Notes under the pieces: model-generated | The model's input: only the letters and a program-made list of their open reading frames with translations | Told to the model about the DNA's origin: nothing | The model's database searches: none | Position numbers and translations under genes: made by a program | Shown: positions 1-30,945 of the stretch, piece by piece | Numbering within the stretch: the first letter of the stretch is position 1 | Layout of the letters: each line of letters starts with the position of its first letter | Virus record (IMG/VR): IMGVR_UViG_2636415833_000004 | Strand: one strand, 5' to 3' | Length of the DNA stretch: 32,502 nucleotides | DNA from: a virus | Lineage: Duplodnaviria; Heunggongvirae; Uroviricota; Caudoviricetes

Positions 1-237
1 ATGTACACCTATAAGATGATACAAGTACCGCCCAATATCTCAGTTAAAGCACGTGACAACAAAGCAGGAATAGCAGCAGCTTACCTTCAAGACGTGGTAA
101 ACGAACAAGCCGCCAACGGCTGGGAGTTTCAGCGGATAGACACTATTGGGATTGAAGAAAAGCCAGGGTGTTTCGGTGGCAGCAAGACAAACTTTACTCA
201 GTACTACGTTATCACTTTTAGAAAAGAAGTGGATTAA
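1..237 (+). CDS. DUF4177-like small protein (hypothetical)
   Basis: ATG at 1; 78 aa; sequence pattern (YK..V...GWE...small beta-rich domain) resembles DUF4177 proteins from memory; stop overlaps next start (TAATG). Confidence 0.45.
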   Translation: MYTYKMIQVPPNISVKARDNKAGIAAAYLQDVVNEQAANGWEFQRIDTIGIEEKPGCFGGSKTNFTQYYVITFRKEVD

Positions 238-452
238 TGTTAAAAGTCTTGAGTATTCGCCTTGTGTTGTTCTACCGAGCACATGCGCCAATGAATATTC
301 GTAACAGATGTCGTCACACCCCATCTTGTTCAAAATACACACTGATTGCATTAAAGCGTTTTGGATTCGTAAAGGGGTGGAAACTAGGTTTAAAGCGGAT
401 TTATCGTTGCCGTCCACCGAATGGCGGTATTGACTACCCGCCACACAAGTAA
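237..452 (+). CDS. YidD-like membrane protein insertion efficiency factor homolog
   Basis: 71 aa with the CRxxPSCSxY ... G(W)KLGLKRIxRCxP ... GG.DYPP pattern characteristic of the YidD family; coupled to upstream ORF. Confidence 0.6.
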   Translation: MLKVLSIRLVLFYRAHAPMNIRNRCRHTPSCSKYTLIALKRFGFVKGWKLGLKRIYRCRPPNGGIDYPPHK

Positions 453-457
453 TGCCT

Positions 458-484
458 AAGGCCGCCATAGTCGACGGCCTTTCT
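458..484 (+). terminator. putative rho-independent terminator after the yidD-like gene
   Basis: Inverted repeat AAGGCCG (458..464) / CGGCCTT (475..481) with 10-nt loop, followed by T-containing tract. Confidence 0.4.
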
Positions 485-916
485 CAAGACCAAAGCGTAA
501 ATTTCAGTTTCATATTTAACTAACTATATGTTTTTATTGTAATTTTTAAAATCTCTCAAGCATTCCCTCACCCTCAAGCCTTCACGTAAAATAATTTTTT
601 CTTTTATTTTCAATGTAATAAAAACAGGCCGATCACATTCGTGATCTTTCTGTTTTCAATTAACTGAAAAAGCACGTAATTTTTTCTGTTCCGCAGATCC
701 TTTTTAGATCCTTGCTGCGCGGGCTTTTGCGGCCCTTTATTGCAATATCCAGAACTGAAAAAACTTTAACCACGCACAAGCGGCGGGCGTGCGGGTGAGC
801 GCGGTTTTCGTCCCGCTGGCGTTCCGGTGTTCAGATTTTGACCGCGCGCCGTGTATCGAGCACCGCCAGACCTGCAGGACCGCCATAAATGACCGTGTTT
901 GCCGGAATGAGGACGT

Positions 917-938
917 AAAAAAGCCCGCGCAGGCGGGC
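917..938 (-). terminator. rho-independent terminator ending the minus-strand late tail operon
   Basis: On minus strand GCCCGC-CTGC-GCGGGC hairpin (923..938) followed by TTTTTT (complement of 917..922), 13 nt after stop of the 951..2597 gene. Confidence 0.55.
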
Positions 939-950
939 AATGAGAAGGGA

Positions 951-2597
951 TTAGCGTTCTATGATGGGGGATAGCTGCGCATGTAGCGTTGCAGCATTGA
1001 CAGATTCAGCCGTAAACAATGCGGCGGTTGTAGGTGGGCTACTGGGGCCGCACTGGCAGTTATGGATGTGCGCAGCGTCAGCCGCTGCTAGCCGTTGAAC
1101 AACCATCATCAGGTTATCCAACAGCACAAAAATATTTATTGCGTCCGTGCCGGTCCAACTCTTTCCGGCTTCAAAATGCTGCAATTCTTTAGCCACGCTA
1201 CGCCGCAGCTTGCCGACGACTTCAACCAACTGCCCGCCGACAGCGTGCCGGTGATCTCCTCCTGCTCCGGTGTCAATATCACCTGCAGTCATCTGCTCAA
1301 TAGCGCCCAGGGTATGCAGGATATGCGACCCGCCAACCTGTAACACATCATCACCCGTTACGCTGGCGCGACGCTCCGCGACGTCCGTCTGTTCTTCATC
1401 CACCGTCAACTTTCGCACCCGCGCAACTTCGGTCAGTGCCTGATCGGTTTCGCGGCTGACATCGCCGCGACTGTTTGTCTTATGCAGAACGCCCGCGCGC
1501 GACTGCTGCACCTGCTCACCCGCAGCAACAGCAGGCAGCGTCAACCCCTGCGCCATTACCTGGCGGATGTGTGGGCGGTCCGGGCGTGCCTCACTGAATC
1601 CCAGTTCGACCAGTGTTCCCGGTGCTGGGTACTGCATCAAGCCGCTATCGCTTCCGCCAAACCCAACCGGCAACGGCACAGCCTGATAAACAGGGACCGT
1701 TTGATCTGGTTTCCCGTCTTCATCAAGTAACTGAACATTGACGGCAAAACGCGGACGGAATGGATCTGATATGTCGCTATGGCCGGTCGTGTCGCTGATA
1801 GCCTCAACGCGGCCAATTTTTGGCAGGTGTAAACCTGCGGCCAGTTCCGGAAACTCCTTTTCAGCCTGGCGGCGGAATTGCGATTTTTGCGCCTCGCGGC
1901 CTTTGCTGTCTGTTACTGCCCATTTGACTGACATCTGGTCATCAGTCAGATCGATACGCTTAACCCGCTGGCCGTTAACGACAGCGCCAGGCCGCAGTGA
2001 CGGCACGCACACGATCCGCATAGTGTCGCCGCCAGTCTGCTGATCAGAAAATCCGGGCGGTATCTCAACGGGCAATGACGGCCATCGGGATTCCTGCCAA
2101 CTACCAACAAACACAACACCTTCGGGCAACTGCTGCCAGATATAATCCGGGATAGAAAAAGCGCGCCCCAGGTTGTTTAGCAACTGATAGCCGCTGCCTG
2201 AATGGGTAAAGTTAGGGATCGGCGTATCGGTGTATTTCTGCCCGTCTGGCAGCGCAAACGCCAGCCCGCACTGTTCAGTAACCCAGTTACAGACATCCCG
2301 TAATGTTGGGTGCTGTATTGAACAGGGCATAGGGCGCGCCAGTATTCCCGTTAATTCACGCACCAGGATACGCTGCCAGCCCTTTTCCGCCTGCTGACTA
2401 CGCTCAACAATACCAGTGAACCAGCGCAGCATTTTTCCGGAATACCCCAGATCCAGCGCGACCATTTTTCCCTGTAAGTTTTCATCACCGGGGACCGTGA
2501 CAAAACCCAACCCAGCGCCGGACAACTCCAGCGCCAGATGTACATTAACCGGCGTTACCGTCTGCGAACCGATATAAAAACGGCTTGTTATCTTCAT
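951..2597 (-). CDS. phage tail-module protein, candidate baseplate hub (gpD-like); function uncertain
   Basis: 548-aa ORF, ATG start with ATGA overlap onto upstream gene, last gene of the tail operon; hub and spike genes are otherwise missing from the module (positional inference only). Confidence 0.4.
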   Translation of the reverse strand: MKITSRFYIGSQTVTPVNVHLALELSGAGLGFVTVPGDENLQGKMVALDLGYSGKMLRWFTGIVERSQQAEKGWQRILVRELTGILARPMPCSIQHPTLRDVCNWVTEQCGLAFALPDGQKYTDTPIPNFTHSGSGYQLLNNLGRAFSIPDYIWQQLPEGVVFVGSWQESRWPSLPVEIPPGFSDQQTGGDTMRIVCVPSLRPGAVVNGQRVKRIDLTDDQMSVKWAVTDSKGREAQKSQFRRQAEKEFPELAAGLHLPKIGRVEAISDTTGHSDISDPFRPRFAVNVQLLDEDGKPDQTVPVYQAVPLPVGFGGSDSGLMQYPAPGTLVELGFSEARPDRPHIRQVMAQGLTLPAVAAGEQVQQSRAGVLHKTNSRGDVSRETDQALTEVARVRKLTVDEEQTDVAERRASVTGDDVLQVGGSHILHTLGAIEQMTAGDIDTGAGGDHRHAVGGQLVEVVGKLRRSVAKELQHFEAGKSWTGTDAINIFVLLDNLMMVVQRLAAADAAHIHNCQCGPSSPPTTAALFTAESVNAATLHAQLSPIIER

Positions 2598-3229
2598 TTG
2601 TCTTTGTCCGTTTTGACAGCTGATCCGGCCGTACCGTTTGACGTCGTATCCGCTTTTGATTCAGACGGCGACGGGGCCAGCCAATCATCAATTTTTTTCC
2701 AGAATTTATCTGATGACGACATTTCAGTGTCTGGCGGTGTATTTTCCCCAGAAGATGCACCCGGCGTCGTAATACCTGGCGTTGTCTGCGAAACAACCCC
2801 GCCCAGTTTTGAAAATACGTTGGCCTCTTTTTTCTCCGGCACACTGCTGTACTCCCGCAGAGTGAACGACACGTTCCACGCCCGCAGTGAATCCGATTCC
2901 GGCGCGCTCAGACGCCCGGTGAATGTCGCCTGGCGCATGTTGATCGCCGTGGCGGTGAGATTAGAAACGCGGTAAACCGTCTGCTTTCCGCCCTCGTCCA
3001 CCCCTTCCGCCAGTTCAAAAATACGCGTAAGAAATTCAACATTACGAAACGGAATCACGCCGCTGACGTTTAATTCCTTTGCTTTTATCCCGCCCTCACT
3101 TTTCTGCGTTCCCGACGTCTGGCCAGACTGATCTTTGTCTTTGAACGGCAAAACAGCCTCCACTTTCAGATTCAGCATTTTTACCGTTTCGCCGTTCAGC
3201 GTTAAAATTACTGGGTGTCTCGTGCTCAT
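2594..3229 (-). CDS. hypothetical tail-module protein (Ser/Thr/Pro-rich C-terminus)
   Basis: 211-aa ORF, ATG start, ATGA-coupled on both sides within the late operon. Confidence 0.4.
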   Translation of the reverse strand: MSTRHPVILTLNGETVKMLNLKVEAVLPFKDKDQSGQTSGTQKSEGGIKAKELNVSGVIPFRNVEFLTRIFELAEGVDEGGKQTVYRVSNLTATAINMRQATFTGRLSAPESDSLRAWNVSFTLREYSSVPEKKEANVFSKLGGVVSQTTPGITTPGASSGENTPPDTEMSSSDKFWKKIDDWLAPSPSESKADTTSNGTAGSAVKTDKDK

Positions 3230-4095
3230 ATGCAGCCCTTCAAAAACGACAGATCCGCGCCAGTGAACAGCACGACAGCAGTAAAAATAAAAGAATGGCC
3301 GGGCGGGCTACTGGATTCCAGCGCAGACGCCAGTGACGCACCGCCACCGCTTCCCTTCCAGGACCAGACCTGCGCGGCGGTTTCGTTCAGCTTGTCAAAG
3401 TCACCAGCCAGATCAGAAACAGCCTTTTCACGCAGCTTTACCAGTTCCGCCAATGTATCGACCGGCGCGCGGGTTTTATGTGCGGCCAGCATCGCCATTT
3501 CTGACAACAGCAGGCGGCGCGATTCACGGTGATTTTTTTCGATCAGGTCGCCAGACTCCGGCCACGCCGGATAGGTCAGCGCGCCGGGGCGTTGCATTTT
3601 CTGGGATTCCTTGCCAGCGTGAGCGCGGGCGGTGTTCAGTGCCTGCGTAAATCCGGGGGCGGGCAAGGTGTCACAGACTTTTGTCAGCTTGCTAATGAAG
3701 TCCCCAATCTGACCAGCGCAAACAAGTAAACAAACGGCGTCACCGCCTGCGCCCATTCTCAGATCTGCACCATCGCGCAATTTTTCGGCCAGCCGTTTGA
3801 CGGCGTTCGGCGGGCTAAGATAAGTGCCGCTTTCTTCCTCCTTACCCGCGCCAAACGTCCAGTTATGAACGGCGATTTGCTGCCCGTTCGTTGTCAGTTT
3901 ATCCAGTTCGACGCGCAGATCGGCAACCTGATCCGCCTGCCCCGCCAATTCTGGCTGCGGCCACTGCGCCCGCGATTCCAGCGCGCGCAATGCGTTAATG
4001 CCAGGGGATGACAGCGACGACAACGCACCGTTTAACGTGTCATGCGGCGTTTTCACTTCATCCGGCAGTTTTAACTGTCCATTACTCCACGCCAT
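3226..4095 (-). CDS. hypothetical protein, unknown function
   Basis: Track start at 4188 is TTG with a 118-nt overlap; first ATGs at 4113 and 4095, the latter preceded by a GGGG Shine-Dalgarno-like element; no recognisable motif. Confidence 0.35.
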   Translation of the reverse strand: MAWSNGQLKLPDEVKTPHDTLNGALSSLSSPGINALRALESRAQWPQPELAGQADQVADLRVELDKLTTNGQQIAVHNWTFGAGKEEESGTYLSPPNAVKRLAEKLRDGADLRMGAGGDAVCLLVCAGQIGDFISKLTKVCDTLPAPGFTQALNTARAHAGKESQKMQRPGALTYPAWPESGDLIEKNHRESRRLLLSEMAMLAAHKTRAPVDTLAELVKLREKAVSDLAGDFDKLNETAAQVWSWKGSGGGASLASALESSSPPGHSFIFTAVVLFTGADLSFLKGCI

Positions 4096-4559
4096 GAATA
4101 ACCCCGCTCCCATTCGCTGGAAACCAGCGCGTGTAACTGGCCGGGCGAATAACGCCAGGCATCCCGTAACTGCATAAATTCGGCACAAAACTCGCTACAA
4201 AACCACTTTTCAGGATTCCCACGGCAAAACAGCAAAAAGCCGATAACCCCGGCGATGTCGTATTTTTTCCCCGCGTACAGGCGGTAAAAACTGGCGATTT
4301 CCTGCGGGCTGGCGCTGATTTCGATCAAGTCCCATTTGTCAGAGGGTAAAGGCATTGTTTTAGCCCTGACCCCGCCATCACGGAACGATGACGAATAGCA
4401 GGTAAAATCCGTGCCGACGTCGTAGCACTGCGGCCCCACGGCGATTTCACAATGTGAATACGGACTGCGGGTAACAAGGCGTGTCACCCAGTCCGCCAGG
4501 CTGGCTAGTCCGTTGTGATCGCTGCGGCCACGATAAAACGCAATAAACACCGCGTTCAT
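4071..4559 (-). CDS. putative permuted papain-fold (YiiX/YaeF, NlpC/P60-superfamily-like) cysteine peptidase/amidase
   Basis: Track start 4568 is GTG; ATG at 4559 forms ATGA overlap with tail fibre assembly gene stop; conserved-looking His (YSHCEIAV) before Cys (WFCSEFC), the order typical of permuted NlpC/P60 enzymes; assignment from memory. Confidence 0.4.
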   Translation of the reverse strand: MNAVFIAFYRGRSDHNGLASLADWVTRLVTRSPYSHCEIAVGPQCYDVGTDFTCYSSSFRDGGVRAKTMPLPSDKWDLIEISASPQEIASFYRLYAGKKYDIAGVIGFLLFCRGNPEKWFCSEFCAEFMQLRDAWRYSPGQLHALVSSEWERGYSWRGVMDS

Positions 4560-5158
4560 GGTTGCCACCCCAGGGACCAGTCGTAAGCCTCAACGGCGGC
4601 AATATCGCCCAGGGCATCCACTGCCGCAATATGCGCCTGCGCAACGGCAAACAAACGCATATCGTGTTCAATGGTCACAAACTCAAACTGTGCGGCGATT
4701 GCGTTGGTCAGTTCAATCAGCCCGTTATTTTTGGTTTGCCACATCAGACCGGGCGGAACCGCGCCCGCCTGTCCCATTTTTGCCAGCGTCATCTGCTGAA
4801 TGCGGCTGTTAGCGTCGCTATGGAAGCGATTCCCGTCGATCACGATGTAATCGGCGGTGACGGCGTCCCTATGTGCTTTTATATCCTGTTCAACCTGCGC
4901 TTTAATCTGCTTCAGCGCGGCGGCAAATGCTGCCGCGTCATAAATCCATTTATCACCGTCCAGGCGATAATATTCGCCCGGTGGCGGCGTTGTTACGAGC
5001 TTTCCAGCAGCGGGATTTACCCAGCAATCACGATCGCGGTAACGCCACTGCACATCCGTTAATTGCATGACCGTTTCAGGCAGAACAATGTCAAACTGAT
5101 CGGTGTCCAGCCATGCTAGGACCTTCATTGATTCAGAATCAAAATATACATATTTCAT
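4556..5158 (-). CDS. tail fibre assembly protein (gpG-like chaperone)
   Basis: 200-aa ORF immediately downstream of the tail fibre gene, ATG start; position and size typical of tail fibre assembly proteins. Confidence 0.6.
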   Translation of the reverse strand: MKYVYFDSESMKVLAWLDTDQFDIVLPETVMQLTDVQWRYRDRDCWVNPAAGKLVTTPPPGEYYRLDGDKWIYDAAAFAAALKQIKAQVEQDIKAHRDAVTADYIVIDGNRFHSDANSRIQQMTLAKMGQAGAVPPGLMWQTKNNGLIELTNAIAAQFEFVTIEHDMRLFAVAQAHIAAVDALGDIAAVEAYDWSLGWQP

Positions 5159-5161
5159 TGA

Positions 5162-7171
5162 TCACCATGACAATTTAACAAAACCCGGCGACCCATTGCC
5201 GCCCGGGAAACAGTTCGCACCAGAAGTCCCATAAGCACCAGCCGACCCGCCCGCACCGTATCCGGTGCCATTGTGACTACCACCGATAACCCCGCAACCA
5301 CCATCGCCATATACTGACGACGCTCCATTATTGCCCGCAGTGGCTTTTGTAGTACCAGTACCGCCAGTAGTACCACCATAACCACCAGAACCACCGGGTG
5401 ACGACACTCCCGAAAATGAAGACGCGCCGCCAGCAGTCCCCGAATTACCCTTGGTCATATTGCCTGCTGATGACGTGACTACGGTTCCCCCTACCCCCCC
5501 ACCTCCGACAACGACAGAAAGGACCGCGCCAGGTGTGACGGTGACAATTGTCGTCACCGGTTTTGACGCACCACCCCCACCACCAGAATATGCACCACCG
5601 CCACCGCCACCGCCGCCACCGCCGAGCACCTCTACCGACATTTTTTTTACACCGGCAGGGACAGTAAATGACCCATTCGCGGTGTACATTGCGTACTTAT
5701 TTAAGTAGCGCGCATCAGCATTTGTTACGGTGATAAAGTCCGGCGCGCCGGTAATATCCGACCAGGGGTGCTTATGGCTTGCGGCAGCTGCATTTACGTC
5801 GCTGTACGTCAGCGTGATGTCCGCTGACAACGCCTTATTGTTAACCTTGCGCGTTGTCGGAACGGCGTTTACATCGCTGTACGTCAGCGTGATGTCTGCT
5901 GACAGCGCCTTATTGTTCACCTTGCGCGTTGTCGGCACAGCGTTTACATCGCTGTACGTCAGCGTGATGTCTGCTGACAGCGCCTTATTGTTCACCTTGC
6001 GCGTTGTCGGCACAGCGTTTACGTCGCTGTACGTCAGCGTGATGTCCGCTGACAGCGGCTTATCGTTCACTTTGCGCGTTGTCGGCACGGCGTTTACATC
6101 GCTGTATGTCAGCGTAATGTCTGCTGACAGTGCCTTATTGTTCACCTTGCGCGTATCCTGCACCGCGTGAACAATGCGCGAATCATCCCCGGCAGCTACC
6201 GTCCCCGCCGCCGTTCCCACGTTACGGGTTGCAGAATTCCCCAGTTTTAAATTTTCGCGGGATTTCACTACATCATCCAGATCGGACAGATTTAGCGACC
6301 GGCGTAAATAGCGCTTATCCAGATCGTCACTGTTACGCACTGGCCGTAAATCAGTGACCGCCCCGTCTGCGGCAATTTCAGCGATTTTGAATACGTAGTG
6401 GGTTTTCCCCGCAGCGTCCGAATATTCAGCCAGATCGCCCGACGTAATAACGCAGATATCAGTGACCGGCACGCAGGCAGTCATGACAGACCCCTGCCAG
6501 ACAGTATCCAGCCAGACGGCGGCGGGTTTAGTCCCGATCGCGACATCCTGCGCGGCTTCGTTCGCCAATCGCAAACCGGCCACATAACCCAACCCAGGCA
6601 GGCAGTTATATTTCACCCCGCTACGTTGAACCAGCCACCCATCATCAAAAAACAGCGCACTGCCGTAATGATCGATATTCAGTAAACGCTGATAATCATC
6701 AATACCCGTCAGACGGGCGGTAAAATCGATCTGCCACGTTTCGGCAGGTGTATTAATCCCTGTCTTGTCTGCAGCACCGTTAAATTCAATCAAAAACGAG
6801 CGGGTAAACGCGTTTCCCTGTTCCGTCGCCGTCGTTTTCACCTTTTCCAGCGCCGGGACCGTTGTCACCATCGCTAAAAGGCCCGTTTTTTTGCAAATCA
6901 GTCCGATCCAGTTAAACGAAAAATTGCCGACGTTTGTTCCCAGGGTAAACGAGTACGCAACCGTGTTTTTATTAACCACGCCCGCAGCGTTGACGGATTC
7001 GCGGTAAACAATTTGCGCGGCATCCGGCAGACCGGCGTCACGGTTTATCACCGCATCCGGATCAAGGCCGGGCACATTAGCCAAAACAAATTCATCCAGC
7101 GAAATGTCGCCCGGCGTCAGCAGATCAGCGGCTTGCCATTGCTCAAACGCCGTCGTGATAATTGTTGCCAT
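5162..7171 (-). CDS. tail fibre protein with tandem 25-aa repeats and glycine-rich C-terminal domain
   Basis: 669 aa; N-terminus MATIITTAFEQW resembles P2 H-type fibre N-termini; five tandem copies of TRKVNNKALSADITLTYSDVNAVPT; C-terminal ~150 aa dominated by Gly runs. Confidence 0.75.
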   Translation of the reverse strand: MATIITTAFEQWQAADLLTPGDISLDEFVLANVPGLDPDAVINRDAGLPDAAQIVYRESVNAAGVVNKNTVAYSFTLGTNVGNFSFNWIGLICKKTGLLAMVTTVPALEKVKTTATEQGNAFTRSFLIEFNGAADKTGINTPAETWQIDFTARLTGIDDYQRLLNIDHYGSALFFDDGWLVQRSGVKYNCLPGLGYVAGLRLANEAAQDVAIGTKPAAVWLDTVWQGSVMTACVPVTDICVITSGDLAEYSDAAGKTHYVFKIAEIAADGAVTDLRPVRNSDDLDKRYLRRSLNLSDLDDVVKSRENLKLGNSATRNVGTAAGTVAAGDDSRIVHAVQDTRKVNNKALSADITLTYSDVNAVPTTRKVNDKPLSADITLTYSDVNAVPTTRKVNNKALSADITLTYSDVNAVPTTRKVNNKALSADITLTYSDVNAVPTTRKVNNKALSADITLTYSDVNAAAASHKHPWSDITGAPDFITVTNADARYLNKYAMYTANGSFTVPAGVKKMSVEVLGGGGGGGGGGAYSGGGGGASKPVTTIVTVTPGAVLSVVVGGGGVGGTVVTSSAGNMTKGNSGTAGGASSFSGVSSPGGSGGYGGTTGGTGTTKATAGNNGASSVYGDGGCGVIGGSHNGTGYGAGGSAGAYGTSGANCFPGGNGSPGFVKLSW
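5786..6154 (-). repeat. five tandem 75-bp in-frame coding repeats inside the tail fibre gene
   Basis: Near-identical 75-bp units visible directly in the DNA; encode aa ~340-462 of the fibre; not CRISPR (no spacers, fully coding). Confidence 0.85.
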
Positions 7172-13141: not shown

Positions 13142-14281
13142 TCAAGCCTCATTCTGTACAGACAGATCAACCATAATATTTACGCCAATAACCAGCGGGC
13201 ATTCAGTCGGGCGCGCCTGTACGTAAATATTTACATGCGTTGAATCAATCCATGTAATAACAATATCACCCTCTTTTGGTGAATAGACTTCACCGGGGAA
13301 TGACACGCCGTTAATAGTGGTACTTTTCGCCATCGTGCGCAGCGGTTTAGCAAACTGCATTTGATGATATTCAACGCTGGACGGCGTGGAATTTAACGAG
13401 CGGTTACCAATATTGCGGATTGCAAGCAAACGCACCTGGCGCGCGACTTTATCAACAATGCGCAGAATGCGGATTGACTGATAATCGCTGCCTTTAGCAG
13501 CCAGCAGCGGGCCATCATTCCAGTAAATGCCCTCAAAATCCGCATACGTGACCGGAACAGAATAACGCGCAGCGTCCAGCGCCTGCACAATATCCGCTGT
13601 TACCGTCTCTCCGTTTTTGTCTTTAGTTGCGTTGCCAACAGACACGAGCGATCCAGTTAAAACGCGCGCGGGAGTATCTGCAATTGTCACCAGCCGATTA
13701 CATAAACGTCCAGCAATTACACCTGGCAAATTCTCATAAAGACGGGGAACCAGCATAACGCCATCAGCAACTAACCCCGTTTGCCATTGCGTTAAAGCGG
13801 CGGAATATTGTTGCCATGTCATGTCACCGCCAACAGGATTTTTAACGGGTAAAATAAACCATGTCCAACGACCGTATGTCGCGATTAATTCCTGGCGGAG
13901 AGCGGCAGCTTCTTTGGCGCTTTTAGTTAGAGAAAAACCGGACTCTTCTTCATTCCAGTCAGCAAAATCCTCTAACAATACAACGCCCTCAAAACTTCCG
14001 TATTTTTGGCATTTTTTAACAGCATCCTGCCACTTTTCGTCAGAATCCATAAAATAAACCGATGCCGACCAATTTTGCCCCGCATTCATCATGGCGGCGC
14101 GAATATCGTCACCCGCTGAACTTGTAATTTTGTCTAAATCAGTTTGAGTATTTAGCGTGTAAAAACCTGGGGTGTAATTTTCAAGCGGCGCATAGCTGAC
14201 GAACAATAAATGCCGCCCTATTTCATTTACAGTGCCTTGCGCCAAATCAATTTGATTAACCTGAACTTGTGGAAAAGTCAT
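13142..14281 (-). CDS. putative tail sheath protein
   Basis: 379 aa, ATGA-coupled to upstream gene, followed by a ~150-aa tube-sized gene; positional and size inference. Confidence 0.5.
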   Translation of the reverse strand: MTFPQVQVNQIDLAQGTVNEIGRHLLFVSYAPLENYTPGFYTLNTQTDLDKITSSAGDDIRAAMMNAGQNWSASVYFMDSDEKWQDAVKKCQKYGSFEGVVLLEDFADWNEEESGFSLTKSAKEAAALRQELIATYGRWTWFILPVKNPVGGDMTWQQYSAALTQWQTGLVADGVMLVPRLYENLPGVIAGRLCNRLVTIADTPARVLTGSLVSVGNATKDKNGETVTADIVQALDAARYSVPVTYADFEGIYWNDGPLLAAKGSDYQSIRILRIVDKVARQVRLLAIRNIGNRSLNSTPSSVEYHQMQFAKPLRTMAKSTTINGVSFPGEVYSPKEGDIVITWIDSTHVNIYVQARPTECPLVIGVNIMVDLSVQNEA

Positions 14282-15382: not shown

Positions 15383-15831
15383 AACAGCCTCACCGTGGCG
15401 CGGGCATAGCCCATAATCTGGCGGATAACCTGCGCAGCTTCACCGCGTAAGCCGTCCGCCGTTTCCTGCAATTCCGCGCCGGGGTGCGTTTCACGACGTC
15501 CCACGGTGGCAAATTCCGGCATTAAATCGGCTTTCGCCCTGGCAAAAACAGCCTTTTTGTAAGACTCAGTCAGCGCGTTAGCCCCTTCACACGACGGCCC
15601 CGGAACATCTGCCGCAGAGGAATACCCCTTGCCGTGTTGAATATCGGTCCAGGTATCCAGATCACGGTTTACGCTGTCAATTGCCGCAAGTAGCGCCGCG
15701 ATAACCGTCGCATTGGCGATACTGGCGGGGATCTGGCGGCGTTCCTCAAATTCTCCGGCGTTAATATCCGGCCAGAACCCCACGTTTTTGATCACGCGGT
15801 CCTGGTAATTCGCCGTTTTGCCGGAAAACAT
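15379..15831 (-). CDS. L: head completion/stabilisation protein (P2 gpL-like)
   Basis: 150 aa, ATG start overlapping M stop (TAATG); position after terminase small subunit as in P2. Confidence 0.6.
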   Translation of the reverse strand: MFSGKTANYQDRVIKNVGFWPDINAGEFEERRQIPASIANATVIAALLAAIDSVNRDLDTWTDIQHGKGYSSAADVPGPSCEGANALTESYKKAVFARAKADLMPEFATVGRRETHPGAELQETADGLRGEAAQVIRQIMGYARATVRLL

Positions 15832-16643
15832 TAAACCCCCTCAGTTTCAGAAGTCGCGGGCTGACCGGCGTCCACGGCGTGATCGGCGATTTCTTCGCCT
15901 ACACCCTCAGCCGCGCCCGCGCCGCGTTGCGGAGTCGTTTCAAGTTTGCGCAGACGTGCCGCGATACGTTCACGCAGAGATTTAACCCCCGCGTTTTTGT
16001 AAAGCGTGCCTGCCGCGTCCAGGCATAAATCGGCCTGACGCAATGCTGCCGGATCATCCAGATTTGCGGGATTAACGCGCCCATCAGCACCGCGCAGGAT
16101 CAGGAAACCGGCCAGTTTGTAATATTTCGCCGTCAACTGTTCGTTGAGCTTCCAGCACTCAGTCACATTCTTAAAAGTTTGAGAGAAAAACGGCTCAATA
16201 CTACGCCCCGCTTCAAACTCACTTTCTGACCAGTCCAGCACTTCATCAGCCACCGTTCCGGCCAGATTGTTACGGAAACCTTCCGGTGACTCCTGACCCT
16301 GTTCAATCGCGATATCAGCCCAATTCAGCGCTTGTTCAAACTTTCTGACGTCCATCAGCCAGACAATGCACCAGACGAAAACCGGATTTTGATAGATGTC
16401 GCCCGCTTCCAGGTACTTTTCAGCCCACGGCAACCAGCGCGGCAGCATAACGTCACGCTTCATTTGAAAGCGTTCTGCGTTGCTATGCAGATCGCGCAGC
16501 GTCCCGACATCCTGACGTAACTGCAAAAGCTGCACATACAAACTACTGTCATCCAGACCAACCGCGCGGGGCGCGGCTTCGCCGGTCATAACCTGACGGG
16601 CACGGATACTTTCAACATGACGTTGAAAAGGCGTTAACGGCAT
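15831..16643 (-). CDS. M: terminase endonuclease (small) subunit, P2 gpM-like
   Basis: 270 aa; N-terminal FQRH...REAAP and LPRWLPW motifs match remembered P2 gpM (PAQRHM, REAAP, LPFWLPW). Confidence 0.75.
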   Translation of the reverse strand: MPLTPFQRHVESIRARQVMTGEAAPRAVGLDDSSLYVQLLQLRQDVGTLRDLHSNAERFQMKRDVMLPRWLPWAEKYLEAGDIYQNPVFVWCIVWLMDVRKFEQALNWADIAIEQGQESPEGFRNNLAGTVADEVLDWSESEFEAGRSIEPFFSQTFKNVTECWKLNEQLTAKYYKLAGFLILRGADGRVNPANLDDPAALRQADLCLDAAGTLYKNAGVKSLRERIAARLRKLETTPQRGAGAAEGVGEEIADHAVDAGQPATSETEGV

Positions 16644-18679: not shown

Positions 18680-20449
18680 ATGAAATATTCAGACGAATTA
18701 AGGGGAATGGCGAAAGCCCTTTATTTAAAGGGACTCACCCCGAAAGAAATCGCCGCCCAGTTAAATCTGCCATCTGCGCGGATCATTTATCACTGGGCTG
18801 ATGTGGGTGAATGGCGCGACCAGATGAAGGTCGTAAACATTGAAGACGCGATCGCGCGCCGCATTGCCCTGCTGACTGACCGGGAAAAGAAAACACCTGG
18901 AGAACTGGACGAACTGGACCGCCTGATCGGCCATCACGTCAAACTGCTGACATCCAGAAATAAGCACGCTGAAAGGATGGCGGAAATAGACGCTCGCGGA
19001 CCCGGCAACACACCGCGCGCAGCCGCCGCAGATGACTGCGACAACCCACGTCAGAAGAAGCGGCGGGCAAACGACGTCAGCCACCTGACCGCAGCGGACT
19101 TTGAACACTTTATTTCTACCCTGTTCGGCTACCAGCAGCGACTGCATGAGAACTTAAGCCAGAAGATCCGCAATATCCTTAAAAGCCGTCAGATCGGCGC
19201 GACATACTATTTTGCATTTGAAGCGTTCGAAAACGCGACGCTGACCGGCGACCCTCAAATTTTCTTATCCGCCAGTAAGCGCCAGTCTGAGGTTTTCCGG
19301 TCATACATCGTCAATATCGCTTTGCAGGAATTCGGCGTTACGCTGAAAGGCAACCCGATCAAACTGAACACCGCGCACGGCATCGCAGAACTGCATTTTC
19401 TGGCGACCAACAGCAACACCGCGCAGTCGAATTCAGGTCACGTTTATATTGATGAATATTTCTGGATACCGAAATTTAATCGCCTTAATGACGTTGCGTC
19501 AGCGATGGCGACCCATGACAGATGGCGTTTAACGTACTTTTCCACACCGTCCGCTAAAACGCATGAGGCTTACCCGTTCTGGACCGGTGAAACATGGAAA
19601 GGCGGCAATAAAAAGCGCCGGGCGGCAGTCTTCCCGACGTTTGACGAAATGCGCGACGGCGGGCGACTTTGCCCGGATAAACAATGGCGGTACGTCATCA
19701 CCCTGGAAGATGCGATCGCGGGCGGCTTCAATCTGGCCAACATTGACGACTTGCGCGATCGCTACAGTGAAACCGCTTTTGCCATGCTGTTTATGTGCCA
19801 GTTTGTGGACGACAAAAACAGCGTGTTCAGGTTTTCCGACGTGGTGCGCTGCGGTGTGGAAACCAGCAAATGGAAGGATTACCACCCCGACAGCGCGTGC
19901 CCGTATAACGGGGAAGTGTGGGGCGGGTTCGACCCGGCGCGAACCGGCGACAACGCAACGTTTGTCATTGTTGCCATTCCATCCACCCTGGCCGAAATGT
20001 TCCGCGTTCTGGAAAAGTACCACTGGCGCGGTTTGTCGTTTCAGTACATGGCGGACCAGATAGAAAAGCTGTTCAGGCAGTTCAATATGACGTTTATCGG
20101 CGTTGACGTGACCGGCATCGGCTACGGCGTGTTTGAACTGATCCAGAACTTCGCCCGCCGCCAGGCAGTGGCAATCCGCTACAACGTCGAAACAAAAACC
20201 CAGCTTGTACTGAAAATGATAGACGTCATCGAAAACCAGCGGATCGAATGGGACGCCCAGGAAAAGGACATTGCAGCGTCATTTATGAGCGTCAAAAAGG
20301 CGACCACGCAGAGCGGCGACAACCTGACGTTCATTGCAGACCGCAGCGCAGAGCACGGTCACGCCGATGTTTTCTTTGCAATCGCTCACGCGCTCTTTAA
20401 TGAGCCGTTGAACTGGAAAAATAAACGTAAATCAACATGGGCCGTATAA
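18680..20449 (+). CDS. P: terminase large (ATPase) subunit, P2 gpP-like
   Basis: 589 aa, ATG start, divergent from O as in P2; immediately followed by portal gene. Confidence 0.85.
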   Translation: MKYSDELRGMAKALYLKGLTPKEIAAQLNLPSARIIYHWADVGEWRDQMKVVNIEDAIARRIALLTDREKKTPGELDELDRLIGHHVKLLTSRNKHAERMAEIDARGPGNTPRAAAADDCDNPRQKKRRANDVSHLTAADFEHFISTLFGYQQRLHENLSQKIRNILKSRQIGATYYFAFEAFENATLTGDPQIFLSASKRQSEVFRSYIVNIALQEFGVTLKGNPIKLNTAHGIAELHFLATNSNTAQSNSGHVYIDEYFWIPKFNRLNDVASAMATHDRWRLTYFSTPSAKTHEAYPFWTGETWKGGNKKRRAAVFPTFDEMRDGGRLCPDKQWRYVITLEDAIAGGFNLANIDDLRDRYSETAFAMLFMCQFVDDKNSVFRFSDVVRCGVETSKWKDYHPDSACPYNGEVWGGFDPARTGDNATFVIVAIPSTLAEMFRVLEKYHWRGLSFQYMADQIEKLFRQFNMTFIGVDVTGIGYGVFELIQNFARRQAVAIRYNVETKTQLVLKMIDVIENQRIEWDAQEKDIAASFMSVKKATTQSGDNLTFIADRSAEHGHADVFFAIAHALFNEPLNWKNKRKSTWAV

Positions 20450-21484
20450 ATGGCAAAACGTAAAAAACAACAACCAGCCCCGGCCCTCGCGCCAGCTATT
20501 CAAAAACAGATGTCTTTTAGCGTGGAATTCGGCGACGCCGAGCGCGTGCCGTGCCTGGGTTCATATGATGGCGTAACAGATGAAGGAGACGGCTACTGGA
20601 CGCCGCCCATTGACCGGGAAGCGCTGGCAAAATTGCCCGACATCGCAACGTACCACGGCGCATGTCTGGGGGCGCGCGCGAAAATGGTCGCGGCGGGTTT
20701 TCTTCGCGGCGGCGGTCTGACGCCTGAAACCGCCCTGGCGCTGGCCGTTAACTTCGTGACGTTCGGTGACGTGGCGCTGTTAAAGATCCGCAACGGCTTC
20801 GGGCAGGTCGTGCGCCTGTACCCGCTGCCGTCTGTTTATGTGCGGCGTTCCACTGACGGCAAAACAAAATTATTGTTACGCGACGGCGAATATAAAGAAT
20901 ATGCCGCAAAAGATATTATTTTTATCCGTCAGTACGATACGTTGCAGCAGATTTACGGAAAACCGGATTATTTAGGCGGCATCCAGTCGGCGATGTTAAA
21001 TAGTGACGCGACCATGTTTCGCCGCAAATATTATCGTAATGGGGCGCATTTAGGTTATATCCTGTATGCCACCGATCCGGATTTATCACCAGAAATGGAA
21101 AAGGCCATTTCTGAAAAAATAGAACAGTCAAAAGGCGCGGGTAATTTCCGCAGTATGTTTATTAACATCCCCAACGGTAAACCAGACGGCGTTAAAATTA
21201 TCCCTGTGGGTGATGTCGCAACAAAAGATGAATATGTGAATATCAAGCGCATATCCGCACAGGACCAGTTAACCGCCCATCGCTTCCCGCCTGGCCTTGC
21301 GGGCATTATTCCGGATAACGTGGGCGGACTGGGCGACCCGTTAAAAGTCCGTGCCGTATATCAATTAGATGAAGTCTGGCCCATGCAGGCGCTAATTGAG
21401 AATGCAATCAATAGTGATTCTGAAATTACCCGCGCAATGCAGGTGTTATTCAAAAAACCGAAAGCGATAGAGGATGAAAAATAA
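20450..21484 (+). CDS. Q: portal protein, P2 gpQ-like
   Basis: 344 aa (same length as P2 gpQ); FRRKYYRNGAHLGYILYATD matches remembered P2 Q segment FRRKYYENGAHAGYIMYVTD. Confidence 0.85.
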   Translation: MAKRKKQQPAPALAPAIQKQMSFSVEFGDAERVPCLGSYDGVTDEGDGYWTPPIDREALAKLPDIATYHGACLGARAKMVAAGFLRGGGLTPETALALAVNFVTFGDVALLKIRNGFGQVVRLYPLPSVYVRRSTDGKTKLLLRDGEYKEYAAKDIIFIRQYDTLQQIYGKPDYLGGIQSAMLNSDATMFRRKYYRNGAHLGYILYATDPDLSPEMEKAISEKIEQSKGAGNFRSMFINIPNGKPDGVKIIPVGDVATKDEYVNIKRISAQDQLTAHRFPPGLAGIIPDNVGGLGDPLKVRAVYQLDEVWPMQALIENAINSDSEITRAMQVLFKKPKAIEDEK

Positions 21485-21798
21485 TGGCTAAACGGTTAAA
21501 ATATACCCCGCTCAAAAATAGATTAAGGGGAAACAAATTGCGCAGCCCGAAAATTATCTGTCCGGAATGCAACGGCAATTCAACGATCAAAAAGACCGTG
21601 CGGAAACATCCCCATCTATCAGATGTTTATTGCGCCTGTAATAACGTTGAGTGCGGTCATACTTTCGTCGTTAATATAACATTTTCTCACACATTAAGCC
21701 CCAGCGCGCTTTCATCTGACCGCGCTATCAAAACGCTGATCGATATGATGTCGCCAGAACAAAAACAAAAAACATTATACCTGTTGTTACCAAGCTAA
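21484..21798 (+). CDS. ogr: Ogr/Delta-family zinc-finger late transcription activator
   Basis: CPEC...YCACNNVECGHTF matches the Ogr C-x2-C ... C-x4-C zinc finger (YHQCQNVNCSATF in P2); ATG overlaps Q stop (TAATG); alternative TTG start at 21538 with AAGGGG upstream. Confidence 0.65.
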   Translation: MAKRLKYTPLKNRLRGNKLRSPKIICPECNGNSTIKKTVRKHPHLSDVYCACNNVECGHTFVVNITFSHTLSPSALSSDRAIKTLIDMMSPEQKQKTLYLLLPS

Positions 21799-26271: not shown

Positions 26272-26465
26272 TCCGCACCCCTCAAATCAATATTGTCACC
26301 GGGTAAAACTCTAATTGCCTGATATCGCGTGGAACGCGTGATCTGTTCATTGCGGTAAAACCCGTCAATAAACACTTCGGCATCAATTAAATACTGCTCA
26401 TTCTTTTTTATTTCCCATATGTCAAATACACGGGTAATGACGGCGGGCGCACTAGTCCTGGTCAT
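26268..26465 (-). CDS. hypothetical small protein
   Basis: Track start 26561 is GTG inside the dam C-terminal region; ATG at 26465 gives 65 aa with a 14-nt overlap to dam stop. Confidence 0.35.
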   Translation of the reverse strand: MTRTSAPAVITRVFDIWEIKKNEQYLIDAEVFIDGFYRNEQITRSTRYQAIRVLPGDNIDLRGAE

Positions 26466-27468
26466 AGAATTCACTCCCCGCGCTCGCACAAAGATCGACA
26501 CTGTCACAAGCTCCGCAGCCGCCATCAGGGCAACCCCAAACCGTGCGGCGTTGGGTGTCACAACTACACGGACGGCCAGTAATCAGACGACCCCCGCAAT
26601 ATTCACAATGTGGGATATATCCGATCACTTCTTTTGCAGTCGCGCGTTTGCTGGTATTGGCACTGACTGACCGTTGAACATTAATTTCCTGAAATGTAAA
26701 CGACACGTATATTTCTCGCGCGGCGGGTGTGTCGCTGTTTGAAATAACAACTTTTGCAGCACCACGCGCACTTATTTCTAATAATTTCTGAACTAAGCGG
26801 CAGTGATCGTCCCGCGTAAATCTCTGTCCGTAATACGTGGTAAAGTCTGCGGTTTCGCTGGCGGGTAAATATGGCGGATCGCAGTAAATAACGAGATTAG
26901 GCCCGAATGTCAGCATTGATAATGTGTCATCAAAATTAAGATTGAGAAACACTGCGTTTGTATCATTCGCCTTTTCTGCAAACCGCCGGATCTCCTCTTC
27001 GGGAAAATACGGCGCTGTCTTATGTTGACCAAACGGAACATTGTATTCCAGTTTATTGTTATAGCGGCAAACGCCGTTATAACCGTGCCGATTCAAATAG
27101 AGAAACCGCGCCGACTGCATTAACGACAATCTCAGTGATAAGGGGCGGCGACCGCATTCGTGGTAACTTGTATTTAGTTCGTTAAATTCTTTGCGAATCT
27201 TTAAATAATATTCTTTTGAATTACCTTCTTTAAATAATTCCCGTGCAACGTCAATAAATAGATTAGTGCGATGCTTCACGTTTTCATACGTATTTATCAG
27301 ATCTGAATTAATATCAGCTAAAACATACTTATCATAACTTGTGTTTAAAAATACCGAACCGCCGCCAACAAATGGTTCCATCAGACAATAACCCTTTGGC
27401 AAGTGCGGCAGCAGCTCAGGCAAAGCGCGAGTTTTTCCACCTGCCCACTTCAAAAACGGTCTGATCAT
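26452..27468 (-). CDS. dam: DNA adenine methyltransferase (Dam-like, N6-adenine) with C-terminal Cys-rich extension
   Basis: N-terminal FLKWAGGKTR (AdoMet motif I) and DPPY catalytic motif; about 60 extra C-terminal residues with CEYCGG...CSCD...CPDGGCGACD. Confidence 0.8.
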   Translation of the reverse strand: MIRPFLKWAGGKTRALPELLPHLPKGYCLMEPFVGGGSVFLNTSYDKYVLADINSDLINTYENVKHRTNLFIDVARELFKEGNSKEYYLKIRKEFNELNTSYHECGRRPLSLRLSLMQSARFLYLNRHGYNGVCRYNNKLEYNVPFGQHKTAPYFPEEEIRRFAEKANDTNAVFLNLNFDDTLSMLTFGPNLVIYCDPPYLPASETADFTTYYGQRFTRDDHCRLVQKLLEISARGAAKVVISNSDTPAAREIYVSFTFQEINVQRSVSANTSKRATAKEVIGYIPHCEYCGGRLITGRPCSCDTQRRTVWGCPDGGCGACDSVDLCASAGSEFYDQD

Positions 27469-30524: not shown

Positions 30525-30945
30525 GGATAATGTTCATCATATAAGAGAACGTCAGGTACCCATAAATAATGAGTCCACAAACAGTAGTGACGACGGAGGC
30601 AACGGCATGAACAGCCTAATAAAACGCGTTGAAAAACTGGAAGACAATACCGGTGTAATTGTTAAAGAACTTACCCATCTCAACGCGCGCGCTGATGACT
30701 TCGCCTCAAAGGGCGATCTGCGTGAACTCAAGGCGCAGATAACTGGGGATATGAAAGAACTCCGTGCGCAGATGACCGGAGATATGCGCGAGCTTAAGGC
30801 ACAGATTAGCGGCGAACTCAAAGAGTCCAGGTCCGCAACCAGGGAAGATCTTGCAAAGGGATTACATAAGCAAATGATATGGCTATGCTCTGCCCTTTTC
30901 GCTACAGCAGGAGTCATAATCGCTTTGGTAAAAGATCTGTTCTAA
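30511..30945 (+). CDS. hypothetical coiled-coil protein with 11-residue repeats and C-terminal transmembrane anchor
   Basis: 144 aa; repeats GDLRELKAQIT / GDMKELRAQMT / GDMRELKAQIS; hydrophobic C-terminal helix MIWLCSALFATAGVIIALV; overlaps upstream gene by 14 nt. Confidence 0.55.
   Translation: MSQTKDNVHHIRERQVPINNESTNSSDDGGNGMNSLIKRVEKLEDNTGVIVKELTHLNARADDFASKGDLRELKAQITGDMKELRAQMTGDMRELKAQISGELKESRSATREDLAKGLHKQMIWLCSALFATAGVIIALVKDLF

Follow-up and report, generated by a model that had tools for sequence, protein, structure and literature searches.

The 32,502-nucleotide stretch of viral DNA analysed here (IMG/VR record IMGVR_UViG_2636415833_000004, Caudoviricetes; in the following, the window) begins with two small genes on the plus strand and continues, from position 951, with a tail operon on the minus strand. 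What lies between them, at positions 453..950, is the question addressed in this study. A sequence-only reading had left two explanations, either a prophage-host junction within this region, the two small genes being host DNA, or a junction left of the window, the genes being prophage cargo. We conclude that 453..950 is very probably the cohesive-end (cos) region of a temperate phage of the P2 family (Peduoviridae, ESSI-2-like), and not a prophage-host junction.

Records of related phages end at the site

According to published reports, the homology between P2 and its satellite P4 is essentially confined to the cos packaging signal, next to which variable gene hotspots reside (PMC9122126, PMC8628076). 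This, together with a block of the studied region that recurs in P4-like satellites, led us to consider a cos region. The cohesive ends of P2 and P4 are given as 19 nt, GGCGAGGCGGGGAAAGCAC (Ziermann & Calendar 1990, as cited in PMC9122126). Judged by the large terminase subunit (61% amino acid identity), the nearest phages are Cronobacter phage ESSI-2 and the Escherichia phages ESSI2_ev129, ev040, ev015 and ev239. They keep the gene order of the window, and their linear records start just beyond the baseplate gene and end after the integrase gene and cargo. The linear ESSI-2 record starts with GCGGGTGCGGTGTAGTGCCGTTTTTGTC... and ends with ...AAAACTGAAAAAATTTTGCGATCCAAAACTTGCAGGCGGGTGCGGTGTAG, the 15-nt repeat GCGGGTGCGGTGTAG being present at both ends, which a record spelling out both cohesive ends would show. 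In the ev129 record, Nextera adapters abut ...CCGCAGGCG at one end and GTAGCGCC... (GTAGCGCCGTTTTTGTC...) at the other, and the right end of the ev239 record stops at the same place. Aligned to the ESSI-2 site, the window reads AACTGAAAAAACTTTAACCACGCACAAGCGGCGGGCGTGCGGGTGAGCGCGGTTTTCGTC (AACTGAAAAAACTTT..AAGCGGCGGGCGTGCGGGTGAGCGCGGTTTTCGTC); by alignment to the ESSI-2 terminal repeat, its cohesive-end segment (cosN) would lie at about 783-799.

The adapters themselves are contamination in public records, here marking physical ends. NC_049394.1 (ev129, L010) contains leftover Nextera/TruSeq adapter sequence at 1-43 and 30879-30927, while NC_049392.1 (ev239, L016) exhibits adapter sequence and a poly-A tail within its positions ~1-120 and last ~75 nt, its first ~120 nt being apparently chimeric.

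Homology to the ESSI-2 cos was too short and diverged for BLAST and was found through the record ends and a scan with the degenerate pattern TGCGGNNNAGYGCSGTTTTYGTC, which spans both the window-type and the ESSI-2-type core alleles. At least 120 IMG/VR viral contigs contain this pattern, and in about 100 of the 120 a homolog of the baseplate gene, encoded on the opposite strand, has its end ~200 bp further right (165 bp in the window). Four blocks are conserved over 112 distinct sites. From left to right, these are a cluster of direct and inverted ACTGAAA motifs, lying ~100-130 bp before the core, a short GC dyad (~-75 to -55), the proximal motif AACTGAAAAA (~-38 to -28), and the core ending in GTTTT(C/T)GTC. 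The window possesses all four. In seven IMG/VR contigs (L024, L033, L041, L047, L081, L138 and L140), the ESSI-2-type cos is followed by a mere fragment of the baseplate gene and then, within 3-7 kb, by an integrase gene; decayed prophages or a different type of small cos-bearing element could account for them.

The window also encodes a P2-type small terminase subunit (15831..16643, PF05944, E 8e-39) and a large subunit (18680..20449) that matches 492 Peduoviridae-type phage records. At the place where P2 carries its cos there is no room for one, as the gap of ~30 bp between ogr and the next gene reads as a terminator hairpin. The ogr gene itself (21484-21798, PF04606, E 6e-13), coding for an Ogr/Delta zinc-finger late activator, directly follows the portal gene and is followed by a bidirectional terminator; in relatives the same gene is labelled merely 'transcriptional regulator'.

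Searches by plain similarity yielded little. Blastn of 740-835 gave chance matches alone, and megablast of 1-25000 against phages gave nothing. An exact 22-mer scan of one-genome-per-species contigs, in which the E. coli representative lacks this phage, hit only unrelated metagenome-assembled genomes of Phycisphaerales/Planctomycetota. The 22-mer in question, GCGTGCGGGTGAGCGCGGTTTT, occurs in five of these (L018-L022) and presumably belongs to an unrelated sequence conserved in that clade.

The attachment sites lie outside the window

A prophage 99.9% identical to the window resides in E. coli 40EC, inserted between yeaE and mipA. The 20-bp attachment (att) core AAAACAGGGCGTGACGCCCT is present twice in 40EC and bounds the insertion. 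On the left, a copy adjoins yeaE at a distance of 228 bp from window base 1; the right copy lies ~160 bp past the integrase stop. The sequence-only reading had proposed a comparison with prophage-free genomes. In unlysogenised E. coli strains, the empty site consists of one yeaE-mipA intergenic hairpin holding the core (...GCAAAACAGGGCGTGACGCCCTGTTTTTATGC...). The yeaE flank matched exactly in all 5426 E. coli genomes up to the core, with no such match beyond it (the homology ends at position 11772 of L001), and the yeaE-to-phage junction was common to seven genomes. The direct repeat that stands at both ends of the element and singly in the empty site lies outside 453..950. The earlier reading had itself named an att core found elsewhere as the finding that would speak against a junction within 453..950, and just such a core is duplicated outside the window. 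The att copies of 40EC place the junction to the left of the window, and the two small genes belong to the prophage as cargo rather than to the host.

Positions 1..1200 of the window occurred in eight of the 5426 complete E. coli genomes, each time in one piece with the tail gene. In the eighth carrier, N1420 (84-87% identical), the same block of DUF4177-yidD genes, AT-rich and GC-rich (cos) DNA resides at another site, next to yecA. We take its junction (L005 ~2320-2375), recognised by eye, to be the 3' half of the tRNA-Leu gene leuZ. ARAGORN called no tRNA at this junction, where only the 3' half of leuZ is visible. Homology between N1420 and the window starts just ~25 nt before the DUF4177 start codon. 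In N1420, a different module of integrase gene and att site thus appears to be joined to the same cargo-cos-tail block, apparently in leuZ. Because the att core lies outside and the block recurs at a second site, 1..950 is wholly phage DNA, which travels with different integrase/att modules. The provirus call, which IMG/VR lists as UViG_3300028969_000137, seems to have been trimmed at gene boundaries, from a gene start to a gene stop, without either att copy. No tRNA genes were found within the window.

Counted from the left end, the 40EC integrase gene (NZ_CP070920.1 2056783-2057775) is located ~659 bp further away than that of the window (~32169 vs 31510). The two elements therefore differ by one or more indels somewhere between window positions 13200 and 27900.

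Architecture of the putative cos region

The region itself comprises the following features, none of which is assigned to a strand:

482..728, left arm of the cos, cosB-like, 32% GC (conserved motif layout)
714..735, short GC dyad GCTGCGCGGGCTTTTGCGGCCC that separates repeat cluster and core (repeat scan)
729..823, block shared with P4-like satellites, including the proximal AACTGAAAAA (753-762) and the cos core (alignment)
782..812, cos core GGCGGGCGTGCGGGTGAGCGCGGTTTTCGTC (ends of ESSI-2, ev129 and ev239, alignment, similarity to the P2 cos)
824..916, variable GC-rich non-coding spacer between cos and terminator (divergence among relatives)

The AT-rich segment with inverted repeats seen in the sequence-only reading was recovered at 481-770 (33% GC vs 50% in the whole window), as was its palindrome GATCAC-ATTC-GTGATC, at 631-646. 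The palindrome forms the centre of an imperfect hairpin at 607-670, whose predicted stability (-17.4 kcal/mol, z -4.4) was attained by 0 of 200 shuffled sequences. ACTGAAA motifs are located at 502-508 (minus), 663-669 (plus) and 754-760 (plus), with a degenerate inverted copy at 681-690; 3 of the 13 ACTGAAA sites of the window thus fall into the 260 bp of 502-760. The arm also holds TTTTCAAT repeats. Its motif layout is at least 90% conserved over the 112 distinct related sites, satellites included, and the non-coding DNA of 453-830 is kept at 87-100% in the close relatives L013 and N1420. In P4, TTTTTACTGAAAAAAG stands at -119 from cos and a GC dyad precedes cos. Counterparts of the GC dyad were found at the same place, namely CCAGCGCTGGCGCGGCCTGG in the ESSI-2-type sites and CCGCGCCATTCCCGGCGCGG in P4; as RNA, the dyad of the window folds no better than shuffled sequences (z +0.3). 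The AT-rich segment is likely an arm for terminase recognition and DNA bending, its binding by the terminase being predicted.

Four GATC (Dam) sites are clustered within 631-710, two of them inside the palindrome, and none is present in 1-630 or 711-1252. Over the whole window, GATC is found at 163 sites vs 104 +/- 8 expected, and the phage encodes a Dam-type methylase at 26452..27468. More speculatively, the GATC-rich palindrome together with the phage's own Dam methylase could gate the use of cos by methylation, by analogy with P1 pac.

The core is unique in the window, with one match at up to three mismatches. To its right, the GC-rich stretch noticed in the sequence-only reading was likewise recognised (771-915 has 64% GC vs 50% in the window and 56% in the adjacent tail gene). 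It contains no credible open reading frame: only 737..940 (minus, 67 amino acids) and 789..974 (plus, 61 amino acids) are present, both run through the terminator, and neither gave a match in a Pfam search. In L013 and N1420, 830-915 is replaced or riddled with 1-3-nt indels, and both flanks are conserved. Because of this indel-rich divergence, set against the conserved 453-830 in the same close relatives, 824-916 is most probably a spacer and not a gene remnant.

Cargo and tail operons flanking the site

On either side, the region is bordered by an operon with its own hairpin:

1..237, plus strand, cargo gene 1, 78-amino-acid DUF4177-like protein, phrog_12383 (Pfam and PHROG matches)
237..452, plus strand, cargo gene 2, 71-amino-acid YidD-family protein (PF01809)
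458..481, plus strand, hairpin after the cargo genes, AAGGCCG...CGGCCTT followed by TCTC, weak terminator candidate
917..938, minus strand, intrinsic terminator of the tail/baseplate operon (stem GCCCGC-CTGC-GCGGGC at 923-938, T6 at 917-922)
951..2597, minus strand, last gene of the tail operon, 548-amino-acid baseplate protein (phrog_2258, E 5e-206)

The first open reading frame is real, but its assignment to DUF4177 (PF13783) is not firm: it scored 23.6 bits vs a curated cutoff of 25, with a match confined to 43 N-terminal positions of the 65 in the profile. The gene is, though, a firm member of the phage family phrog_12383 (E 1e-37). For the second gene, the YidD assignment holds (PF01809, 66.5 bits vs a cutoff of 27, profile positions 3-66 of 67), and RefSeq labels it yidD in all eight carrier E. 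coli genomes. Both genes are translationally coupled by the stop/start overlap TAATG. The operon had been credited with a terminator of its own. The hairpin at 458-481 does exist (-11.3 kcal/mol, z -1.8) and is kept in L013 and N1420, but as a terminator it is weak; owing to its poor T-run (TTTCTC), a scan for consensus terminators did not list it. A PADLOC search of both cargo proteins gave zero matches.

At its other border, the predicted terminator of the tail operon was confirmed as a perfect 6-bp GC stem followed by T6 (-12.5 kcal/mol, z -2.7), located 12 nt after the stop of the baseplate gene. A perfect 14-nt inverted repeat, CTGCGCGGGCTTTT / AAAAGCCCGCGCAG at 715-728 and 919-932, brackets the cos core and is also found in L013. 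Its left arm belongs to the GC dyad preceding cos, and its right arm is supplied by the terminator of the tail operon.

Blastn of 1-1000 against phage records returned a homolog of the cargo genes in phage P88 alone, the DNA homology stopping at window position 445. In P88 (Xuanwuvirus, NC_026014.1, L004), 71%-identical DNA at 148-887 contains a DUF4177-like/YidD-like pair near the record end. Only its first gene is annotated, a toxin gene of the hok/gef family comes next, and the pair sits between a tail gene and the record end. As P88 carries the homologous pair, the cargo moves between different Peduoviridae. The interval between att and cos holds different genes in the relatives, a serine acetyltransferase gene in ev129, an Abi-family gene and an acetyltransferase gene in ev040, and an O-acetyltransferase gene in ev239. 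Because of this variation, the interval is a cargo slot and DUF4177-yidD one of several alternative morons.

Two alleles shared with P4-like satellites

A sensitive search with 453..950 against the E. coli genomes disclosed, in addition to the eight carriers, matches of 89-95 bp (729 or 735 to 823, ~80% identity) in four other genomes. These four satellite matches comprise a core of ~40 bp nearly identical to that of the phage, the common sequence being GGGCGTGCGGGTGAGCGCGGTTTT(C/G)GTCCCGCTGGCGTT. All sit in P4-like islands with a DUF927 primase gene, an Ogr/Delta zinc-finger gene and an integrase gene or its remnant, and are located between the Delta gene and a Phd/YefM-YoeB cassette. Satellites and phage have the arm and the core in common and nothing to the right of ~+25.

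Among P4-like satellites, the window-type core was found in the islands L006 and L007 and in L014 from IMG/VR, and the ESSI-2-type core in L040, L103 and L115, three of the contigs hit by the degenerate pattern; all six contain a DUF927 primase gene and an Ogr/Delta gene. E. coli Z1323HEC0462 and PapRG-04-4 are examples of strains with window-type satellites. Only two lineages were found to carry the window-type core (GGGCGTGCGGGTGAGCGCGGTTTT), that of this rare phage and a sub-lineage of P4-like satellites bearing Phd/YefM-YoeB; the ESSI-2-type core belongs to common phages and other satellites. Since each core type occurs in both kinds of element, each of the two putative cos alleles is common to one phage lineage and one satellite lineage. 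In L006 (4192-4697) and L007 (4186-4691), the Phd/YefM-YoeB toxin-antitoxin pair follows right after cos, at the position of the cos-adjacent hotspot of P4.

The alleles may even define helper-satellite pairings within the ESSI-2-like branch of the Peduoviridae, a proposal that we make only tentatively and consider rather doubtful. Should packaging depend on the allele, the window-type satellites would have their dedicated helper in this rare phage. If the proposal is true, the divergence of cos would reflect an escape of helpers from satellite parasitism, or satellites tracking their helpers.

Alternative explanations

That an att junction lies within 453..950 and the DUF4177-yidD operon is host DNA might be suggested by the sharp shifts in composition at ~480 and ~770 and by the two genes, whose products look like small housekeeping-type proteins and whose transcription runs against that of the tail operon. 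The duplicated att core outside the window and the empty-site comparison refute it; moreover, 5418 of the 5426 E. coli genomes lack 1..1200, which accompanies the tail gene even at the second integration site, leuZ, and homologs of both genes occur in phage P88. We therefore regard a junction at this place as practically out of the question. The sequence-only reading had also suspected the remnant of a degraded gene in 770..915. Two overlapping open reading frames of 61-67 amino acids and a GC content like that of phage coding DNA would fit this idea, which nevertheless found no support: neither frame has a Pfam match, both cross the terminator, and 830-915 exhibits 1-3-nt indels between near-identical relatives. 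The left third of the stretch turned out to be a conserved non-coding site, 770-830 being conserved as DNA even in satellites without the downstream gene, the rest diverges with indels, and the equivalent interval of P2 is annotated as non-coding. A gene remnant is thus very improbable, although no full translated search of a large protein database was made. We attach hardly more than a slight chance to a small toxin or RNA module in the AT-rich segment, such as a type I toxin-antitoxin system of the hok/sok type. In P88, a hok/gef gene does separate the DUF4177/yidD-like genes from the tail gene, the hairpin at 607-670 is unusually stable, and the segment is strongly conserved though non-coding. 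However, Rfam searches of the whole window at gathering thresholds and of 400-1000 at E up to 10 revealed no credible match (best E 0.24 to 0.36, far under the gathering scores), and the open reading frames of at least 25 amino acids in 480-770 encode basic or hydrophilic products, none of them hydrophobic and Hok-like. In addition, the DNA homology to P88 ends at window position 445, and the motif layout is that of the cos arms of ESSI-2-type phages and P4.

The block 729-823 might, finally, serve transcriptional control, as a late promoter dependent on Ogr/Delta or as a terminator or antiterminator, rather than being cos. Helper and satellite cross-activate late promoters in the P2/P4 system, the satellite block lies upstream of the divergent Ogr/Delta gene and ~100 bp before the Phd/YefM-YoeB operon, and terminator-like hairpins are predicted at 714-735 and 788-803. 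On the other hand, three related phage records end at this site, no TGT-N12-ACA late-promoter dyad occurs in 1..7000, a scan showed no sigma-70-like promoter in 700-830, and in the phage only convergent terminators lie downstream on either strand. A control function in place of cos therefore seems most unlikely to us; a promoter at another place in the satellites' AT-rich arm is conceivable and would be compatible with cos. Several points weigh against the cos interpretation itself. Cleavage in this phage is deduced from homology to the ends of related records, and the core of the window differs from the ESSI-2 type at ~6 of 23 positions and by a 2-nt indel, the exact nick sites being unplaceable. 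The 15-nt terminal repeat of ESSI-2 could in principle be an assembly overlap, the ESSI2_ev040 record ends away from this site, and the left end of ev239 is chimeric. Furthermore, the similarity to the P2 cos is modest (z ~5, mononucleotide shuffles) and stems in part from the terminator, the hairpin at 458-481 makes a weak terminator, and the roles of the ACTGAAA repeats, the palindrome at 607-670 and the GATC cluster are predictions.

Proposed function and significance

Taking 453..950 as a cos region, the order in circular or concatemeric DNA would be the integrase gene, attP, ~230 bp, DUF4177-yidD, the AT-rich arm, the cos core, the GC-rich spacer, the terminator and the baseplate/tail operon. 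By analogy with P2/P4 and lambda, the P2-type terminase (15831..16643 and 18680..20449) would recognise the arm with its ACTGAAA repeats together with the GC-rich core, and staggered nicks within ~783-799 would create the cohesive ends. Virion DNA would then carry the cargo operon at one end and the baseplate gene at the other. The hairpins at 458-481 (plus) and 923-938 (minus) may block convergent cargo and tail transcription from crossing cos, and P4-like satellites with the same arm and core might be packaged by the terminase of the helper.

The location of the site is implicit in existing data, as the public ESSI-2 record already starts there. New are a core allele that has diverged in a rare lineage of E. 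coli phages, its counterpart in a sub-lineage of satellites and the explicit motif architecture. The annotation can be settled in that the provirus lacks ~228 bp at its left end and ~160 bp at its right end and its two leftmost genes are phage cargo, and the packaging site offers the best explanation for a non-coding stretch of ~500 bp hitherto unexplained. For ESSI-2-like relatives of P2, cos would be placed at the end of the tail genes beside attP, making the slot between att and cos analogous to the hotspots of P2/P4. The signature of ACTGAAA repeats and a core ending in GTTTTYGTC locates the putative cos in more than 100 uncultivated relatives, and flags P4-like satellites that probably depend on ESSI-2-like relatives.

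Comparison with known systems

Like the window, the cos-adjacent hotspots of P2 and P4 harbor accessory gene sets with their own transcription signals beside cos, which vary among similar phages. There the slot is located between gpA and gpQ, in the window between attP and cos. DUF4177-yidD, which had no PADLOC match, differs in this respect from the hotspot genes.

The window resembles P2 and P4 in its G-rich core, which follows ..AAGCGG(G)C, in the arm on one side, which is AT-rich and holds an ACTG(A/G)AA motif and a GC dyad (in P4, ACTGAAAAAA at -119), and in the GC-rich spacer on the other, ~100-140 bp long and ending in the convergent terminator of a structural operon (tQ in P2). In both cases the cos is shared by helper and P4-like satellites and variable cargo is adjacent; like P2, the window encodes small and large terminase subunits of the P2 type. 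The core sequence, in contrast, is clearly diverged and can be aligned only if gaps are allowed. From cos to tQ, P2 is colinear with window 766-943 in a gapped alignment (score 58 vs 29 +/- 5 for shuffles, maximum 51), which includes AAGCGG(G)CGGGCG(A/T)G.CGGG and the terminator. P2 has its cos between the old/tin cargo and the portal gene Q, whereas that of the window would lie between attP-proximal cargo and the last baseplate gene, and because of this different position the virion map would be permuted relative to P2. In P2, ogr comes after the tail genes; in the window, it comes after the portal gene.

In the group of ESSI-2 (Seongnamvirus), ESSI2_ev129 (Quadragintavirus) and ESSI2_ev239 (Evevirus), identity to the large terminase of the window reaches only 61%. 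The group also carries another core allele, GGCGGGTGCGGTGTAG(T/C)GCCG as opposed to GGGCGTGCGGGTGAGCGCGG in the window, and other cargo, a serine acetyltransferase, O-acetyltransferase or Abi gene in place of DUF4177-yidD. Window and ESSI-2 group agree in gene order, in a site ~200 bp beyond the baseplate stop, in the succession of an inverted ACTGAAA pair, the GC dyad, the proximal AACTGAAAAA, the core and then GTTTT(C/T)GTC, and in a cargo slot between the integrase gene and cos.

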